Shown one piece after another: positions 6,085 through 39,130 of a stretch of DNA of 64,000 bases. Position 1 is the stretch's first letter. Each line of letters starts with the position of its first letter. A program made the position numbers and the translations under genes. The DNA comes from Clostridia bacterium (GTDB taxonomy: Bacteria; Bacillota; Clostridia; JAAYHZ01), in the NCBI GenBank assembly GCA_050950825.1, contig JBMNIH010000003.1:352001-416000 (forward strand), written 5' to 3'. The notes below the pieces were generated by a model. The model was not told where the DNA came from. It did not search any database and was given only the letters and a program-made list of their open reading frames with translations.

Positions 6085-7881
6085 TCAAGCTGCGGACTCC
6101 CCTTCCTCCGGCTTATCGATGTAGTAGGAGAACTGCGCATTTTGGTATTTTGTCAGCCATTCCTCATAAGTCATATCTTTTTTCAAGTTCGCATAGATGG
6201 CTTCCCAAACCCTTCGATCCGAACAGTTGTAATCCCAAGAACAAACCCCCGCCAAGTTATACTTAAGCACCAAGGAGGTCTTGTAGTTTAAAGAGTTCTC
6301 GTCTTCGATCCACATTCTGTACAAGGAATCCCCTTCTCGGTATTCCAAATAGAATTGCTTGCTCACGTCGTCCCAAGTGATGGATGCGCCTTCGCTGGCT
6401 TTTGCAATGTTCCGCATACCTTGGATGGAAGGTGTTTTTGCGGTTTTGACCGAAACCTTGCCGTCGGTTGTTACGGTTTCCTCCCAAAGCCTTGAATAAA
6501 ACGGTATGCCTAAAAGCAGCTTTTCATTGGGCACCATTTCCAAGGTCCTTCTCAGGCGGTTTTCCACCCATACGTATTGGGCTACGGAGCCTGCAACCGG
6601 GCTGCCGTGCCAGTGCTGGTCGTAAGTCATCAGCATGACGTAATCCATAATTTCGCCTAAGGCTTGGTGATCATAACACAAGGAATAGGTATCGCTTCCG
6701 TCCGGTACGCCTACGTCGATGGATACCGTCAGTCCCTGTTCTTTTAACAAAGGCACCGCTTCTCGCATTAATTGGGTCAGCATATCCTTGTCTTGCTTTA
6801 ACACGTTTTCAAAATCAAAATTAATCCCGTCCACTTCGTATAAAGAAGCAAAAACAAGAAGCTGCCGAATCAGGTTTTCCCGCGCTTCCGTGCTGTTTAA
6901 AAGCCGGCTTGTTTCTTGGGCGTCGGAAAAATTGTTTACCACCATGGCCCACACCTTGTATCCCTGTTCATGGGCCCATCTTGTGTAATTCAGGTCGGCT
7001 ATGTTTTTTAAGTTTCCGTGTTCGTCGATCACCTCGAACCATCGAGGAGACAAAACGTCCAATCCGTCAATTTTTTCTACTCCGGTCATGTCGGGTGTGC
7101 CGGAATACATGCTGTGCCAGGACAAGCTGATTTTCCCGGTTTCCGGTTTCCAAGAAAAATCCCGAGGAGGAACGTAAGGTATATGGATCACGGTTACCCA
7201 ACTGACACCCACGTCATCCTTTTGAACATACCCTACGGTCCCGTTGTCCAGCCGTACTTTGTACCAATCCTTGTATTCTTCAAAAACCCTCATGGTATCG
7301 CCGAAGCTCAATACGGCCAGCACTTCTCTTTTAATAGACCGGCCGTTTCTTAAATAGGCTTTTTCGGTGATCACGCGAGCTTCTTGGACCATCCGGTTCA
7401 AATAGTCAATGATAACAATATCGCTTTCACGGACATAGCGGATTTCGATGCTGTAAAATTCTTTTAAAAACTCGATGGGTACGTATACCTTGTTATTGAT
7501 CTCCGTAACCGGTATATCCAATTTCACCGGATTGTTGTTGATATAGGCTTGGAGCTTTTCCGTTTCCATTCGTATGACTTTGTCTTTCGTGGTCACGGTG
7601 AGTTTTTTCTCTTTGGCATCCCACAGGATATTTTTATCGATATAGGTGCGAACGGCTTCCACGGGCAACAGAATGCGGTCTTGGTAGAATAGCGGATTCA
7701 TGGATTTCGGCGCTTTTTCCGCTCCTACCATTAAGATGGTTTCGGTATGATCAAAAGGATCGATCATGCTCGTGACCGGCACATATCGATCCACATACGC
7801 TTGGTATACGGTTTTAACCGCAAGATAAGACCCTCCGGCAATAAAAACGAGAAGAAGAATTAAAACAAGTGCTTTTTTCAC
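6085..7881 (-). CDS. Glycoside hydrolase family 18 protein with copper-amine-oxidase-N-like and SH3b domains
   Basis: DGINFDFE catalytic motif, MTYDQHW; SH3b pattern WYKVRLDNGTVGYV. Confidence 0.9.
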   Translation of the reverse strand: MKKALVLILLLVFIAGGSYLAVKTVYQAYVDRYVPVTSMIDPFDHTETILMVGAEKAPKSMNPLFYQDRILLPVEAVRTYIDKNILWDAKEKKLTVTTKDKVIRMETEKLQAYINNNPVKLDIPVTEINNKVYVPIEFLKEFYSIEIRYVRESDIVIIDYLNRMVQEARVITEKAYLRNGRSIKREVLAVLSFGDTMRVFEEYKDWYKVRLDNGTVGYVQKDDVGVSWVTVIHIPYVPPRDFSWKPETGKISLSWHSMYSGTPDMTGVEKIDGLDVLSPRWFEVIDEHGNLKNIADLNYTRWAHEQGYKVWAMVVNNFSDAQETSRLLNSTEARENLIRQLLVFASLYEVDGINFDFENVLKQDKDMLTQLMREAVPLLKEQGLTVSIDVGVPDGSDTYSLCYDHQALGEIMDYVMLMTYDQHWHGSPVAGSVAQYVWVENRLRRTLEMVPNEKLLLGIPFYSRLWEETVTTDGKVSVKTAKTPSIQGMRNIAKASEGASITWDDVSKQFYLEYREGDSLYRMWIEDENSLNYKTSLVLKYNLAGVCSWDYNCSDRRVWEAIYANLKKDMTYEEWLTKYQNAQFSYYIDKPEEGESAA

Positions 7882-34777: not shown

Positions 34778-35250
34778 TTCCCCCTTTTTAAACAAACAAC
34801 CTATTTTGAATATTTTGCTTTTCTTATACTGTAATTGATTAAAGCTCATTATGAAATGGTAGAATAAGACAGTTTATTCAGATTCATGTCCTATTTTAAC
34901 TAAATTATTAATGTTATATATTTTTACTATTTGCTATTTATGATAAAATAATATTGCCTGTTAGCGAAGAAAGAAGGGACGGATTCCAAATCATGATTAT
35001 CAATGGAAATCCAATCATTTCGGATTCTATCTTAAAATTTTCGGATAGCGAAATTCATGTGGATATCGAGGGAATTCGTTTTTATATACTTTTAGACAGA
35101 AATTTTTTCAGCAGAAAACACATTTTATCCTTCCTTCGGCACAAGCACGGAGCTATTGAAATCTTCTTTGTTCGCGACGGTCAAGGGGAAATGAGCATCG
35201 GTAATAAAACATATGAGCTGTCGAAAAATAGAATCTATATCGTCAATAAG

Positions 35251-35322
35251 TGTTTACGCTGAGTTAAAATGTCCAAAAACTGATGGAATTGCCTGTCCAG
35301 ATATTGCTGGTATATAATGGCC
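35251..35322 (+). repeat. Left end of the transposon with three 24-bp-spaced TGNCC repeats
   Basis: TGTCC at 35270, TGTCC at 35294, TGGCC at 35318. Confidence 0.75.
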
Positions 35323-35405
35323 ATATACATTCTATAGAAAGAAAAAAGCGTCCTTGTTTCAATGTGATACTGTTACAGCAGTAGCACCAAGGACGTCCCC
35401 AAACT

Positions 35406-35935
35406 ATGATCATTATATCAAAATATGAACTAGAAGAAAAGGCAGAAGAACAAGTTTTTATGTAAGAAGTTTGGAGCAGTTTCTATGTCCCTGCTGCAGG
35501 AGTAACCGTATGAAGGTTGTAGGGAGCAGGCCCAGGAAGTACCTGCAGGAGGATGCCTCGCAAGTGATATTGATAATACGCAGGCTGCGCTGCCTGGAAT
35601 GTAACAAGATACATCACGAATTGCCCGATATACTGGTTCCATACAAACGGTACAAAAGCGAATGCATAGAGACAGTTGTAGCAGAAGATAACAACACTCC
35701 GCTAGCAATAGCATGTGATGAATCTACGCTATACCGGTGGAAAAAGTGGTTTAACTCTTTAAGCAGGTATTTTGCAGGTTGCTTGCAGTCCATAGCAATA
35801 CAGCTGGGAAGAGAAACTGAAGAAGCTTCAGGACCAATATCCGTCCTCCATAGGATATGGTTTTATGTTATCGCCACTGCTGGCCGAGGGCCTGGATCCT
35901 GCAAAAGCGAAAGAGATCAAAGCCCGTATATGTGA
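35406..35935 (+). pseudogene. Zn-finger/HTH accessory protein (DUF6431-like), frameshifted and apparently 3'-truncated
   Basis: ATG at 35406 (MIIISKYELEEK) stops after a T5 run (35455-35459); adding one T gives FYVRSLEQFLCPCC...RRLRCLEC..HHELPDILVPYKRY. Confidence 0.7.
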
Positions 35936-37172
35936 ACAAACCGGTATATCAGAGCGTACTCTCCGAAGATATGTGGCACAATACCGGGAAGCCGGATTCG
36001 ACGGTTTAAAGCCTAAAGGAAAGAGCCAAAGAAAAACAGAGGATGCCATACCATCCCATGTATTGGAGCAGGCTATTCTTCTGCGCAGGCAGGTTCCAAG
36101 CCGTAGCGTATCACAGTTGATAAACATCCTGGAGTGGGAAGGAATTGTAGAGCCGGGCCGGATAAAGCGCAGCACACTGCAGGAGCAATTGGCAAACCGG
36201 GGGTACAGTGCAAGACAGATGAAAATGTACACATCAACGGGAGTAGCAGCGCGCAGGTTCCAACATCGGTATCGCAATAAGCTCTGGCATTCGGACATCA
36301 AGTATGGCCCTTATCTTCCTATCGGCAGGGATGGAGAAAAAAAGCAGGTGTTTTTGGTTCTCTTCGTGGATGATGCTACCAGATACGTTCTTCATGGAGA
36401 ATTTTATCCCACCCTGGATAAAGTCATCGTAGAGGATTGCTTCCGGAAGTCCATTCTTAAGCATGGTGTGCCCGAAGCCGTATTTTTTGATAACGGCAGC
36501 CAATACAGGAACAAGTGGATGACACGGGCATGTGCAAAAATGGGCATTCGTCTGCTCTATGCCCGCCCCTACTCGCCGGAAGCAACCGGCAAAGTTGAGA
36601 GGCTGAACCGGGTAGTGGATTCCTTTCTTACAGAGGCCGCTTTGGAGAAACCACAGACCCTGGAAAGGTTGAACGAGCTGTTCCAGGTATGGCTTACCGA
36701 ATGCTATCAGAACAGGCCCCATTCCGCCCTGGTGAATCACATGAGTCCGGAGGTTGCATACCGAAGTGATACGAAACCCCAAAGGTTTATTGACCCGGAC
36801 GTCCTGGCTCAGGCGTTTTTGCATTTTGAGGAACGCAAGGTGGATAAAGCAGGCTGTATCAGCTTCAACGGCCAAAAGTATGAGGTTGGCCTTCCCTTTA
36901 TTGGCTGCACCGTAGATGTGATCTATGATCCGGCATACACCGACGAGCTTACCATTGAGTATGAAGGCCATAGCCCATGGAAGGCTAAGAAGCTGGTAAT
37001 AGGTGAACGATCCGGTCGACGGCCTGATTTACCGGAATATCTTACCACCGAAAAAGCGGAGGCATCCCGCTTGCTAAGAGCAGCCAAAAAGAAGAACGAG
37101 CAGCGCATAGAACAGTACATGCCTGCCGTCTCTTACAGAAACGTGGCCAAGGGTGGTGAGCAGAATGTTTGA
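35865..37172 (+). CDS. DDE-type transposase/integrase (HTH, rve core, Mu-like C-terminus); N-terminus probably clipped
   Basis: HTH (TGISERTLRRY); DDE triad in WHSDIKY, FFDNGSQY, GKVERLN. Confidence 0.92.
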   Translation: MLSPLLAEGLDPAKAKEIKARICEQTGISERTLRRYVAQYREAGFDGLKPKGKSQRKTEDAIPSHVLEQAILLRRQVPSRSVSQLINILEWEGIVEPGRIKRSTLQEQLANRGYSARQMKMYTSTGVAARRFQHRYRNKLWHSDIKYGPYLPIGRDGEKKQVFLVLFVDDATRYVLHGEFYPTLDKVIVEDCFRKSILKHGVPEAVFFDNGSQYRNKWMTRACAKMGIRLLYARPYSPEATGKVERLNRVVDSFLTEAALEKPQTLERLNELFQVWLTECYQNRPHSALVNHMSPEVAYRSDTKPQRFIDPDVLAQAFLHFEERKVDKAGCISFNGQKYEVGLPFIGCTVDVIYDPAYTDELTIEYEGHSPWKAKKLVIGERSGRRPDLPEYLTTEKAEASRLLRAAKKKNEQRIEQYMPAVSYRNVAKGGEQNV

Positions 37173-37965
37173 AGCCTTTTATGGGTTTAAACGCACACCC
37201 TTCACACGTGATATTCCTACTGACCAGCTTTATCAGCCCATCATACCGGAAGAGACATTAGGGCGCCTGCAATATGCTGCAGATCGTCAGTTGTTCGCTG
37301 TTGTTACCGGGGACTGCGGTACCGGCAAAACCACAGCTATCCGCCGTTTCCGGGATATTCTGGACTCTTCACGATTTCATGTTATGTACCTTGCCGATTC
37401 CAAACTGACGCCCAGGCATTTCTACAAGGGTTTACTGGAGCAGCTGGGGTGTGAGGCAAAATTCTACCGTGGAGATGCCAAACGCCAGCTGCACCGGGAA
37501 ATTGAGCTTATGAAGGGAATCCATAAACTGCAGCCTGTTGTCATAGTTGATGAAGCTCATCTTTTAGACCGAGAGATGCTGGAAGAGGTTCGTTTCCTGC
37601 TGAATTTCAAGATGGACTCAGAAAGCCCAATGGCTTTAATTCTGGTGGGACAGTCAGAGTTGTGGGATAAATTCCAGCTCCAGGCATATGCCGCCATCAA
37701 GCAACGTATTGATATTCAGTGCAAACTGAATCATTATGATCGGGCTCAGGTGGGTGAATACGTACATAGACATTTAGAGTATGCAGCTTGCGACAGGGAA
37801 ATTTTCTCTGAAGCGGCGTTGGATGAGATATTTAAGTATTCCAGCGGCTCTGCCAGGCTCATAAACAAGCTTTGCACCCATTGCCTGCTGTTCGGTGCTC
37901 AAAATGGCCGCAAAATCATTGATGACCATATGGTAAAGCTCGTGATACAGGGGGAATTGGCGTGA
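37165..37965 (+). CDS. ExeA-type AAA+ ATPase (transposition regulator, MuB/TnsC/IstB analogue)
   Basis: Walker A GDCGTGKT, Walker B VVIVDEAH, LILVGQ, QRI; overlaps the transposase stop. Confidence 0.92.
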   Translation: MFEAFYGFKRTPFTRDIPTDQLYQPIIPEETLGRLQYAADRQLFAVVTGDCGTGKTTAIRRFRDILDSSRFHVMYLADSKLTPRHFYKGLLEQLGCEAKFYRGDAKRQLHREIELMKGIHKLQPVVIVDEAHLLDREMLEEVRFLLNFKMDSESPMALILVGQSELWDKFQLQAYAAIKQRIDIQCKLNHYDRAQVGEYVHRHLEYAACDREIFSEAALDEIFKYSSGSARLINKLCTHCLLFGAQNGRKIIDDHMVKLVIQGELA

Positions 37966-38288
37966 TACAATTCCACTGTTCTTATCAATGGGATGATGGT
38001 AGTAAAGACATATGGCATGGTACTGTTAGCCAGGTTATTAATTTCGGCAGCCACTATGAGATTTTCATTTTAAGCCGGAGCAGCTTGCGGGTACTGGTTG
38101 GTCAATCAACCTCAGGGTTGTTTGCCTGTCTTCCTGATTGTAGCGCAGGGTGCCATTTGAGTACCCTTAATGATACTTTCTACAACAGTGAGAAGTTGAT
38201 TTATGCTTTAGGAAATGTTGTAGACGGTATGACAATAGCTTATGCTTTCAAAGCATTGGAACCATTTTTAAACTTCAATAACGACTAA
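37962..38288 (+). CDS. Small transposon-encoded protein (DUF6618-like)
   Basis: 108-aa ORF coupled to the ATPase by a GTGA overlap; W.G, GCHLSTLNDTFYNSEKL pattern. Confidence 0.7.
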   Translation: MIQFHCSYQWDDGSKDIWHGTVSQVINFGSHYEIFILSRSSLRVLVGQSTSGLFACLPDCSAGCHLSTLNDTFYNSEKLIYALGNVVDGMTIAYAFKALEPFLNFNND

Positions 38289-38295
38289 ATACATA

Positions 38296-38320
38296 GCGGA
38301 TAACCTTTTAGTTATCCGCT
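38296..38320 (+). terminator. Hairpin at the end of the transposon operon
   Basis: GCGGATAAC-CTTTTA-GTTATCCGC inverted repeat. Confidence 0.6.
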
Positions 38321-38335
38321 CATGCCTTCGCTTTA

Positions 38336-38407
38336 TTGGCAGTTATACCGTCAACTTTTGGTCAATTAACAACATCTATTTCGGGACAATTTGAGCTAGC
38401 ATTAACA
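38336..38407 (-). repeat. Right end of the transposon with periodic repeats
   Basis: Reading inward from the end: TGTCC at nt 20, TGACC at nt 44, TGCCA at nt 67. Confidence 0.75.
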
Positions 38408-39130
38408 ATAAAGGATCGTATCATTGCCAATCAATCCATAATACGATCGAAGGATACTCCTTTCAGTTTCGTTATGAAGTACAAAAGCCTGCGGAATCCG
38501 TCTTCGCTCACAGCGAGCGCAATCTTTTTCTTGAAAGATTAAACCGACTCCGGGACTGCGTCCTTGAGGATGAATACGACTGCTGCGATACCATCGAAAA
38601 AATTCATCAAGAGATGAGAGAAATGAAATTCGGGTTTTATAACAAGATCCAGACGTATTTTGCACAAATGATCATTCATATATTGCGGATGTATCAACCG
38701 AAAAATCCGGAGAAAATCGAGCTTGAGAAAAAGAGCCCGGAGCAGTCACGGACGGAAATCATCGACAACTTCTTCTATGACAATTTTGATAAGCGATGCG
38801 GTATAGATGATCCGGCATCCCTAGTAGGCGTGAGCAGCAGACAATTAAACCGAATCCTTAAAGAAGAATACGGTTATAGCTTTAAGCAAATCATCATGGA
38901 AATGCGAGTGGAAGTGGCAAAAGATTATCTAATCCAAACGGACGTCACCGTATCCGACATCTCCTACATCGTCGGATATACCGAACCAAGCAACTTTTGC
39001 GCCGTATTCAGAAAAGCGACAGGCAAATCTCCCGGCGCCTATAGGAAACACCGTAGATAACGGTATTGACAGTTCTACAATGATGTTTCGATAAAAAAAT
39101 AAAACCCACGGAAACATGTTCCGTAGGATT

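Follow-up and report, generated by a model that had tools for sequence, protein, structure and literature searches.

Transposition systems that pair a DDE transposase with an AAA+ ATPase, such as Mu, Tn7, the CRISPR-associated transposons and IS21, are the main models of regulated target capture and serve as tools for genome insertion. Mu duplicates 5 bp of its target, and Tn7-like elements and Tn5053 duplicate the same length. The canonical members of IS481 are about 1-1.3 kb long and have a single open reading frame (ORF), TGT ends and a short duplication; in IS1 and IS3, InsA and OrfA are small DNA-binding regulators. For Tn552, 6-bp target repeats (PMC3276174) and subterminal repeat arrays in long inverted ends (PMC8649781) have been described, and IS21 carries multiple end repeats (PMC11208146). 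We focus here on an element of 3157 bp in a 64,000-nucleotide stretch of a Clostridia bacterium genome (assembly GCA_050950825.1, contig JBMNIH010000003.1, positions 352,001 to 416,000), which we call the window. The element is a Mu/Tn552/IS481-related insertion sequence that is essentially uncharacterised. With a probability of roughly 0.6, we read it as a damaged copy of a large, uncharacterised insertion-sequence family, inserted in an AraC-family gene, for which a mechanism involving three proteins (a DDE transposase, an AAA+ ATPase and a zinc-ribbon protein of the DUF6431 family) can be proposed.

The element, its family and its copies

The element is real and mobile, because copies share its termini and because other genomes hold near-identical copies with perfect duplications. 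An earlier note, made from the window sequence, had set its boundaries at TGT...ACA, 3157 bp, and these hold: a second copy in the same genome (contig C7, G000:C7:223458-226805), intact and 3348 bp long, has identical termini and diverges from the window immediately outside them. Comparison of copies within genomes gives the same TGTT...(A/T)AACA ends in relatives from other genomes, and in RNA-library contigs of run X1 the similarity stops exactly at both termini (positions 2001 and 5348 of L006, the locus of the C7 copy). The note had also proposed that excision restores the interrupted gene, and removal of the element with one flanking repeat indeed rejoins the cupin part of the AraC-family gene in frame with its HTH_18 part. 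Its target duplication of 5 bp with one mismatch stands only in part, in that the window flanks match at four of five positions but the norm of the family is 6 bp. The site can be read as a 6-bp ATAAAG duplication from which an A on the left has gone, or as one of 5 bp in which a single base was substituted, and the AraC frame is restored under either reading. A boundary shifted by one base (35250-38406), which would give a perfect 5-bp AATAA repeat, was rejected, given that TGTT...AACA ends recur throughout the family. As for an empty AraC site, DNA of the left flank was matched in neither of two genomes (one of the same genus, one of the same family) in a search run without a positive control. 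A Ruminococcus gnavus contig has a DUF6431 entry in its gene table (PMC12323340, Table 1); this may be a further case of an AraC gene being hit, or coincidence. Between the ends lie four co-directional plus-strand ORFs, and Pfam and NCBIfam agree with the gene order given earlier: zinc-ribbon protein, DDE transposase, AAA+ ATPase and a protein of 108 amino acids (aa). The last of these is coupled to the ATPase, as had been noted, by a 4-nt overlap with the ATPase stop (GTGA).

A scan for related transposases, taking one genome per species, gave 399 relatives. The 80 best loci, together with the C7 copy and three plasmids, make up a set of 84. DUF6431 lies upstream of the transposase in 82 of the 84 and the ATPase downstream in 80, every miss falling at a contig end. 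The transposase has at least 2,609 relatives at E ≤1e-10 among 8,000 candidates, and the three-gene order is repeated on named plasmids of Alicyclobacillus, Planococcus, Ruminococcus albus, Geobacillus and Streptomyces. In Mycobacterium, a weak DUF6431 match (E 1.7e-4, below the Pfam cut-off) lies upstream of DDE and AAA genes, and for Acidithiobacillus the PLSDB table, which is incomplete, lists DUF6431 and a DDE gene only. Intact elements measure 3.0-3.35 kb, most of them about 3.0 kb, and hold three or four genes. The family is abundant in anaerobic Bacillota and is also present in Actinomycetota and Pseudomonadota. In a check on close relatives of the host, two of 40 other genomes held a transposase match (E ≤1e-30), both at about 30% identity, and phage records gave one weak match only. 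In a distant relative on a Streptomyces plasmid, a 92-aa ORF with no Pfam match lies between transposase and ATPase, with 4-nt overlaps on both sides (L101 3835-4113).

The left and right ends of the element are imperfect inverted repeats that match at 41 of 64 positions when aligned ungapped. Two GTCCnAAAGCTGACGG-like 16-bp repeats stand at nt 21-36 and 45-60 from each terminus, and their positions are conserved family-wide. End profiles located 46 elements with both ends, the window and C7 copies included, and a perfect duplication of 5-7 bp flanks 27 of these 46, copies within one genome not being independent: 20 are of 6 bp, six of 7 bp and one of 5 bp. Two further elements have a 6-bp duplication with one mismatch, and 17 have no duplication. 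In genomes with several copies, perfect duplications are found for all four copies in Desulforudis and all four in Sporomusa (three of 6 bp, one of 7 bp). Insertion sites are diverse, with elements lying inside ordinary genes and the 27 duplications showing only a weak C-n-T-T-A-n bias. In a Paenibacillaceae lineage (L059, L060, L074 and L081) the 7-bp duplications are alike (CCAATAC, GCAATAC, CGAATAT and CTAATAC), which suggests that this sublineage has a target preference. In L029, the last 858 bp of the element are tandemly repeated directly past the right end (6277-7134), and a 1524-nt RNA-library contig (run X2, record 11) joins the exact right end to an internal position on the opposite strand (L006 3637/5348), as insertion of a copy into another copy, or self-insertion, would give.

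The host genome holds three copies, namely that of the window (contig C3), the C7 copy and one on contig C1. A stretch of 187 bp is absent from the window copy and present in both others, a deletion not seen in the earlier note. In the C7 copy, DUF6431 has 165 aa and the transposase ORF 461 aa; in the window copy the deletion has taken DUF6431 residues ~133-165 as well as the initial 26 residues of the transposase ORF. Among the DUF6431 residues lost are nine that do not vary in a 36-sequence alignment, including W139, R142, N149, N151, W153, T156 and R157. Outside the deletion, window and C7 copies are 100% identical over the first 619 bp and 98% identical over the remainder. The C1 copy (G000:C1:106617-109634, L007) has lost both ends (its first 262 bp and last 68 bp), and an end-profile scan of the genome found termini only at the C3 and C7 copies. 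Its frames for the transposase (99% identical), the ATPase and the fourth gene are still open, and while this remnant is immobile, it might conceivably supply proteins in trans. The window copy is probably unable to move alone and would probably move, if at all, only with proteins from the intact copy. The C7 copy itself lies immediately past the terminator of the BREX gene brxL (BrxL_ATPase, E 1.5e-148; L006 12-1919), and to its right lie a truncated tyrosine-recombinase ORF and an IS4-like DDE transposase (L006 5395-7291). Two further copies, 99.6-99.8% identical to C7, occur in metagenome-assembled genomes of one isolate series labelled Caldicoprobacterales and Tepidanaerobacteraceae (L016 and L017). 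This near-identity points to recent horizontal transfer or to binning cross-talk.

The leader and the making of DUF6431

This analysis adds three features at the left of the element: a promoter-like site inside the end, a covarying leader hairpin and a conserved short ORF that lies out of frame with DUF6431 at a U-run in 62 of 64 loci. The inward promoter-like site, scored on the identical C7 copy, has 10 of 12 matches and is conserved in the family end alignment; one RNA-library contig begins 6 nt past the -10 box, beside adapter sequence, which is a hint only. The hairpin comprises 16 pairs, 12 of them with compensatory changes, and 88.7% of its alignment cells are paired, versus 78.0% in shuffles (none of 500 reached the observed value) and 23-49% when the partner is slid. 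Rfam has no family for the leader. As to expression, 49-85% of the element's sampled words are found in 14 metatranscriptome runs, and contigs from all four runs examined cover the element, including the 187 bp missing in the window.

Relative to the zinc-knuckle frame of DUF6431, an ATG-led M[VI]I[VI][ST]xY[EQ]L segment lies in the +1 frame in 54 of 64 loci, in the -1 frame in eight, among them the window's lineage, and in frame in two. Because this N-terminal segment is encoded in another frame, full-length DUF6431 would need a frameshift. In distant DUF6431 proteins the segment is found in one frame with the ribbon: among 26 representatives, picked for a match starting at residue 16 or later, 16 carry it by the strict pattern (P0292 and P0328 among them) and about 21 by eye. 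GGNG stands directly before the U-run in 36 of 37 distinct +1-type leaders, and the window's lineage has AAAGG about 12 nt upstream of the run, spacings that recall the stimulators of prfB and dnaX. The split of frames is not an artefact of metagenome assembly, because it is also present in complete genomes and isolate plasmids. These sequence patterns suggest that DUF6431 is made via programmed frameshifting, which we regard as the best reading.

The alternative is that no frameshift takes place, the upstream ORF being a separate leader peptide or untranslated, and DUF6431 starting at an internal TTG, ATG or GTG without the N-terminal segment. In favour of such independent initiation, 39 of 51 distinct leaders offer an in-frame GTG, TTG or ATG upstream of conserved residues, and gene callers do annotate database proteins from such in-frame starts (MSWL... 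or MFFVRS..., for example). On the other hand, 12 of the 51, including those of the window's lineage, lack any such codon ahead of the conserved F[FY]V[RK]S, and the residues that precede the annotated starts stay the same while their codons change synonymously. Twelve of 37 distinct +1-type leaders have an interrupted U-run, of T4 or T5, yet the out-of-frame layout always falls at the same U-run, and the leader peptide shares homology with the N-terminal part that the distant proteins encode in frame. Three of the four runs examined have listed RNA-library contigs that span the T-run, and these show no indels in it, although contigs drop rare variants and are silent on ribosomal shifting. Taken together, we consider initiation without a shift unlikely, with an appreciable chance of being right, and retain programmed frameshifting.

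The four proteins

The earlier note had described a transposable element with a DDE transposase and an AAA+ ATPase, and the matches of both proteins support a pair of the Mu/Tn552 type. In PHROGs, the transposase falls in phrog_310 ('transposase', E 6.9e-47) and the ATPase in phrog_296 ('DNA transposition protein', E 4.6e-30), which, from the family annotations alone, may be read as Mu-like A and B proteins. MuB (8xvb, E 1.6e-4) is the sole PDB sequence match of the ATPase, which in Pfam scores 88 bits with AAA_22 and 25.4 bits with TniB, over the 22.4 cut-off, and also resembles the ExeA-like TIGR03015; IstB_IS21 (PF01695) gave no Pfam match to it at E ≤0.01. The Mu transposase C-terminal domain PF09299 is present on many close homologues of the transposase, while the transposase itself reaches only Mu-transpos_C_2, at E 0.12. 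Among the classical elements, Tn552 is the best match for the transposase profile and MuB for the ATPase profile, and all scores are low. The transposase profile gives 41 and 14 bits on two pieces of the broken Tn552 transposase of pMW2, each scored alone, 12.8 bits on TniA and 2.9 bits on MuA, and the ATPase profile gives 10.7 bits on p271 of Tn552. The NCBIfam IS21 transposase model reaches 43.6 bits against a cut-off of 160. That no TniQ is recognisable, as was stated earlier, is upheld: the Pfam models of TniQ and TnsD (PF06527 and PF15978) match none of the four proteins, and the DUF6431 profile misses the TniQ of R751. Among the four plus-strand genes inside the ends there is neither TnsA nor a resolvase.

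It could still be argued that this is an ordinary, catalogued IS481-family insertion sequence with passenger genes and nothing new. The best NCBIfam model of the transposase is indeed IS481 (NF033577), but its 185 bits stay under the NCBI cut-off of 224 and it spans residues 18-295 only, beyond which come a further 165 residues, the MuB-like ATPase and DUF6431, constant across phyla. PGAP labels a 30%-identical Geobacillus relative 'IS481 family transposase', and IS481 elements have TGT ends and a 6-bp duplication too, yet such constancy is not how passengers would behave. The family may already stand in ISfinder under IS481. We find it unlikely that the element is no more than a catalogued IS481 member with passengers.

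Two uncharacterised small accessory proteins are present, as had been claimed, one of the DUF6431 family and one DUF6618-like. The latter, the 108-aa product of the fourth gene, scores 18 bits with DUF6618 (PF20323) against a threshold of 27 (E 0.0035), while its relative in L080 reaches 27.5 bits; its homologues form 32 clusters, each with a precomputed PF20323 match. An ORF occupies this fourth slot in 20 of the 80 loci with an ATPase, with the 4-nt overlap in all 20, and no coupled fourth ORF was found in the other 60. Seventeen of the 20 are credible (12 DUF6618-like, two DUF5348, two of a 99-100-aa family and one other of 79 aa), and three look spurious, having TTG starts and low complexity, with two of them running through the element end. 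In a quick transposase tree, ten DUF6618 carriers fall in one clade (Shimodaira-Hasegawa-like approximate likelihood-ratio support 98), and the slot has been swapped there, because L023, a carrier of the 99-aa family, is nested among them. The model of the 108-aa protein is confident (mean predicted local distance difference test score, pLDDT, 94.1), with six strands and two helices. Its fold searches gave nothing informative: Foldseek found nothing at E ≤0.001, ESM Atlas matches of 0.82-0.83 are at noise level, and the best VIA-align match is to 6iy0, a DUF3055 protein that is itself uncharacterised (Z 7.3 over 61 residues). A full-text literature search returned no mention of DUF5348 or DUF6618. 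The perfect hairpin that follows the fourth gene was flagged on the minus strand by a terminator scan, and it may block transcription reading into the element.

Most loci lack the fourth gene, and those that have one hold any of several unrelated small proteins, so it is dispensable. The earlier suggestion of a selector or regulator in this place is not supported, given its absence from 60 of 80 loci and at least four unrelated families in the slot, and of the possibility that accessory genes are dispensable and not conserved, the part concerning the fourth gene proved true, while DUF6431 is constant. The protein could nevertheless be a regulator or target selector acting on the ATPase, with lineages plugging different selectors into one slot. 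Its position directly after the ATPase, where tniQ would stand, the invariable overlap with the ATPase stop, the variety of families (DUF6618-like, DUF5348, 99-100-aa and 79-aa), the swap within one clade and the high-confidence fold all agree with this. However, the protein is not needed, since the loci that do without the gene include identical multi-copy elements with perfect duplications; its homologues by sequence amount to only 32 clusters, its fold has no informative match, and between the window and C7 copies it diverges more than its neighbours do (94% amino-acid identity, versus 99% for the ATPase and 98% for the transposase). We think the role of regulator or selector improbable and place the fourth protein outside the core.

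DUF6431, on the other hand, belongs to the core. The window protein matches PF20020 with an E value of 2.9e-27 (94.8 bits against a gathering threshold of 26.6), and a profile search gave 1,566 DUF6431 clusters at 50% identity; no fused forms occur among the best 150 of these 1,566 representatives, which are all stand-alone proteins of 90-278 aa. The alignment features CxxC...CxxC, an HHELPD-LVPYKRY block, a DEST-x-RW-x-WF segment and a conserved C-terminal region. The ribbon is modelled with confidence (pLDDT 76-92, residues 1-50) and aligns with the NrdR ribbon in VIA-align (Z 4.8, root-mean-square deviation 2.2 over 45 residues, 31% identity), there are weak Pfam matches to Zn_ribbon_ISL3, Zn_ribbon_NrdR and the InsA ribbon, and in a Streptomyces homologue HTH_23 (E 8.7e-6) directly follows the ribbon. 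Sequence and model suggest a DNA-binding protein built of a zinc ribbon, a helix-turn-helix-like segment and a helical tail, the ribbon and helix-turn-helix being of the type of IS1 InsA, ISL3 or NrdR. With the same model, Foldseek against the PDB found nothing at E ≤0.001, the top match being the NrdR ribbon at E 0.046, and the wide VIA-align search gave generic helical matches only for residues 81-165 and listed no TniQ chain. The missing TniQ match is not evidence of absence, because the mean pLDDT of the model is 65.8.

When transposase, ATPase and DUF6431 were co-folded, DUF6431 scored 0.39 against 0.00 for the best of three controls, a pass of a weak class that is wrong more often than not unless the pairing was already probable, and one obtained with three chains and custom alignments, unlike the calibration. 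In that calibration, 58 of 80 solved complexes passed the mark, as did two of 110 mismatched pairs, and passes at ≤0.60 comprised seven of the 80 solved complexes and both passing mismatches. Contact agreement between runs was at least 66% and partner pLDDT at least 70. The score fell to 0.00 once the transposase alone was replaced and the ATPase kept, a hint that DUF6431 may contact the transposase rather than the ATPase. That DUF6431 is instead a new target selector replacing TniQ or TnsD, recognising target DNA and recruiting the ATPase, as the earlier note had entertained for its zinc-finger protein, is very doubtful: the protein is universal in a family that has no TniQ, TnsD or TnsE, probably binds DNA and, at 165 aa, is like small TniQ proteins in size and zinc binding, but it has no Pfam TniQ or TnsD match even at E ≤5, its profile does not find R751 TniQ at E ≤10, the insertion sites are diverse, the weak co-fold signal depends on the transposase, and its gene lies upstream of the transposase whereas tniQ follows the ATPase in Tn5053 and R751. 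DUF6431 fits better as a regulator or assembly factor, binding both DNA and the transposase.

Table of features of the element and its insertion site (positions in the window)
Feature	Position	Strand	Remarks
AraC-family gene, N-terminal part (cupin, ligand-binding)	34954..35250	+	99 codons; Cupin_2 and AraC_binding matches
Left flanking repeat ATAAG	35246..35250		decayed copy of target duplication
Whole element	35251..38407	+	3157 bp; TGT to ACA; internally deleted copy of a 3348-bp insertion sequence
Left terminal inverted repeat	35251..35314	+	begins TGTT; two 16-bp subterminal repeats
Left subterminal repeats	35271-35286 (GTCCAAAAACTGATGG), 35295-35310 (GTCCAGATATTGCTGG)	+	presumed transposase-binding sites
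Inward promoter-like site TTGCCT, 18 nt, TATAAT	35289..35318	+	overlaps inner subterminal repeat
Two-helix leader hairpin	35348..35397	+	between AAAGGAAA-like stretch and first ATG
Leader ORF MIIISKYELEEKAEEQVFM*	35406..35465	+	conserved DUF6431 N-terminal segment; frame differs from rest of gene
T5 run, proposed -1 frameshift site	35455..35459	+	would join leader ORF to DUF6431 frame
DUF6431 gene (ORF)	35471..35935	+	native to ~35868, then out-of-frame tail; conserved frame opens near 35452
DDE transposase	35865..37172	+	HTH and rve domains, Mu-type C-terminal region; first 26 residues missing here
Junction of 187-bp internal deletion	35866..35869		4 bp microhomology
AAA+ ATPase, MuB/TniB/ExeA type	37153..37965	+	likely start ATG 37165, overlapping transposase stop
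108-aa DUF6618-like protein	37962..38288	+	start overlaps ATPase stop (GTGA); optional accessory gene
Perfect 11-bp stem hairpin	38295..38320		3' of fourth gene, ~85 bp before right end; coordinates converted from C7 copy
Right terminal inverted repeat	38344..38407	-	ends AACA
Right subterminal repeats	38372-38387, 38348-38363	-	mirror left-end pair
Right flanking repeat ATAAA(G)	38408..38413		
AraC-family gene, C-terminal part	38413..39060	+	open frame; HTH_18 and HTH_AraC matches

Proposed mechanism and relation to known systems

An intact element would consist of a left end with its inward promoter, a structured leader, DUF6431, a DDE transposase whose core is IS481-like and whose C-terminal region is of the Mu type, and a MuB/TniB-like ATPase, joined in some lineages by one small extra protein coupled to the ATPase. 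First of all, the transposase would bind the two 16-bp sites observed at each end and cut at TG/CA. Second, the ATPase is proposed to capture target DNA and activate strand transfer with a 6-bp stagger, in keeping with the 6-bp duplications observed. Third, DUF6431 would act as a sequence-specific DNA-binding partner of the transposase that controls or assembles the complex, like InsA of IS1 or OrfA of IS3, and probably not as a TniQ-like target selector. Its synthesis would be throttled by a frameshift at the U-run, which would be -1 in the window's lineage but +1 or -2 in most. Finally, the fourth protein would be a swappable accessory outside this core. A bolder picture, of an unnamed family whose three-protein machinery includes an obligatory transposase-binding zinc ribbon, whose output is set by frameshifting and whose plug-in slot tunes target choice or immunity, is tentative, and we think it somewhat likelier to fail than to hold.

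Several points weigh against the reading of a damaged member of an uncharacterised three-protein family, besides those given above for independent initiation, for IS481 and for the class and set-up of the co-fold. The intact C7 copy lies between flanks without a target duplication (TTTTG and CTTAA). DUF6431 has no significant fold or sequence match to a protein with a known role in transposition, and its model is poor past residue 50. Transcription is not proven by the metatranscriptome matches, because RNA libraries can contain DNA, and the steps of the mechanism are drawn from sequence and structural models.

The family is compact, at about 3 kb, with a constant third protein and an apparent recoding switch of its own. 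In the passages returned by a full-text literature search, DUF6431 receives passing mentions only. The role of DUF6431, once found, would give a function to a domain of more than 1,000 clusters and might reveal a new control of Mu-type transpososomes. The JS66 preprint describes a DUF6431 element as an unnamed 'repetitive gene cassette' of 15 copies and reports that 63 kb were deleted between two such copies. The element should be annotated as one unit, because genes such as that of the AraC-family protein are disrupted by it and because of the deletion in that preprint.

Of the systems compared, Tn552 of Staphylococcus aureus resembles the element in having a DDE transposase of similar size (p480) followed by an ATPase of about 270 aa (p271), in its 6-bp duplication and in the best transposase profile score among the classical elements (41 bits, on one piece). 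The similarity is distant, however, and Tn552 differs in its resolvase (bin), res site and bla cargo, in ends of about 120 bp and in lacking DUF6431; we know of no frameshifted first gene in it. Mu shares the TG...CA termini, several binding sites per end, the MuB sequence match and a regulator gene (Ner/c) that precedes the A gene. It is, on the other hand, a phage without a zinc-ribbon protein, and its MuA, of 663 aa, barely scores (2.9 bits). In Tn5053/Tn402 (TniA, TniB, TniQ and TniR) and in Tn7-like elements, the transposase is likewise followed by an AAA+ regulator, the TniB domain being reached by the ATPase here, and the optional fourth gene stands in the position of tniQ. Unlike those systems, the element has no TniQ, TnsD, TnsA, resolvase, cargo or fixed attachment site, and its duplication is of 6 bp (20 of 27 perfect ones) rather than 5 bp. 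IS481 supplies the NCBIfam model that scores best on the HTH and catalytic core and has TGT...ACA ends and a short duplication, whereas the element, at 3.0-3.35 kb, adds a Mu-type C-terminal region, an ATPase and DUF6431. IS21 (IstA and IstB) also joins an rve transposase to a dedicated AAA+ helper, but the ATPase here is of the AAA_22/TniB/MuB type. Finally, IS1 (InsA and InsAB') and IS3 (OrfA and OrfAB) resemble the element in a first gene for a small zinc-ribbon and helix-turn-helix protein, in recoding at a homopolymer and in a promoter inside the end; the shift proposed here, however, would lie inside the N-terminus of the small protein and not at the junction with the transposase, and its direction would vary by lineage.

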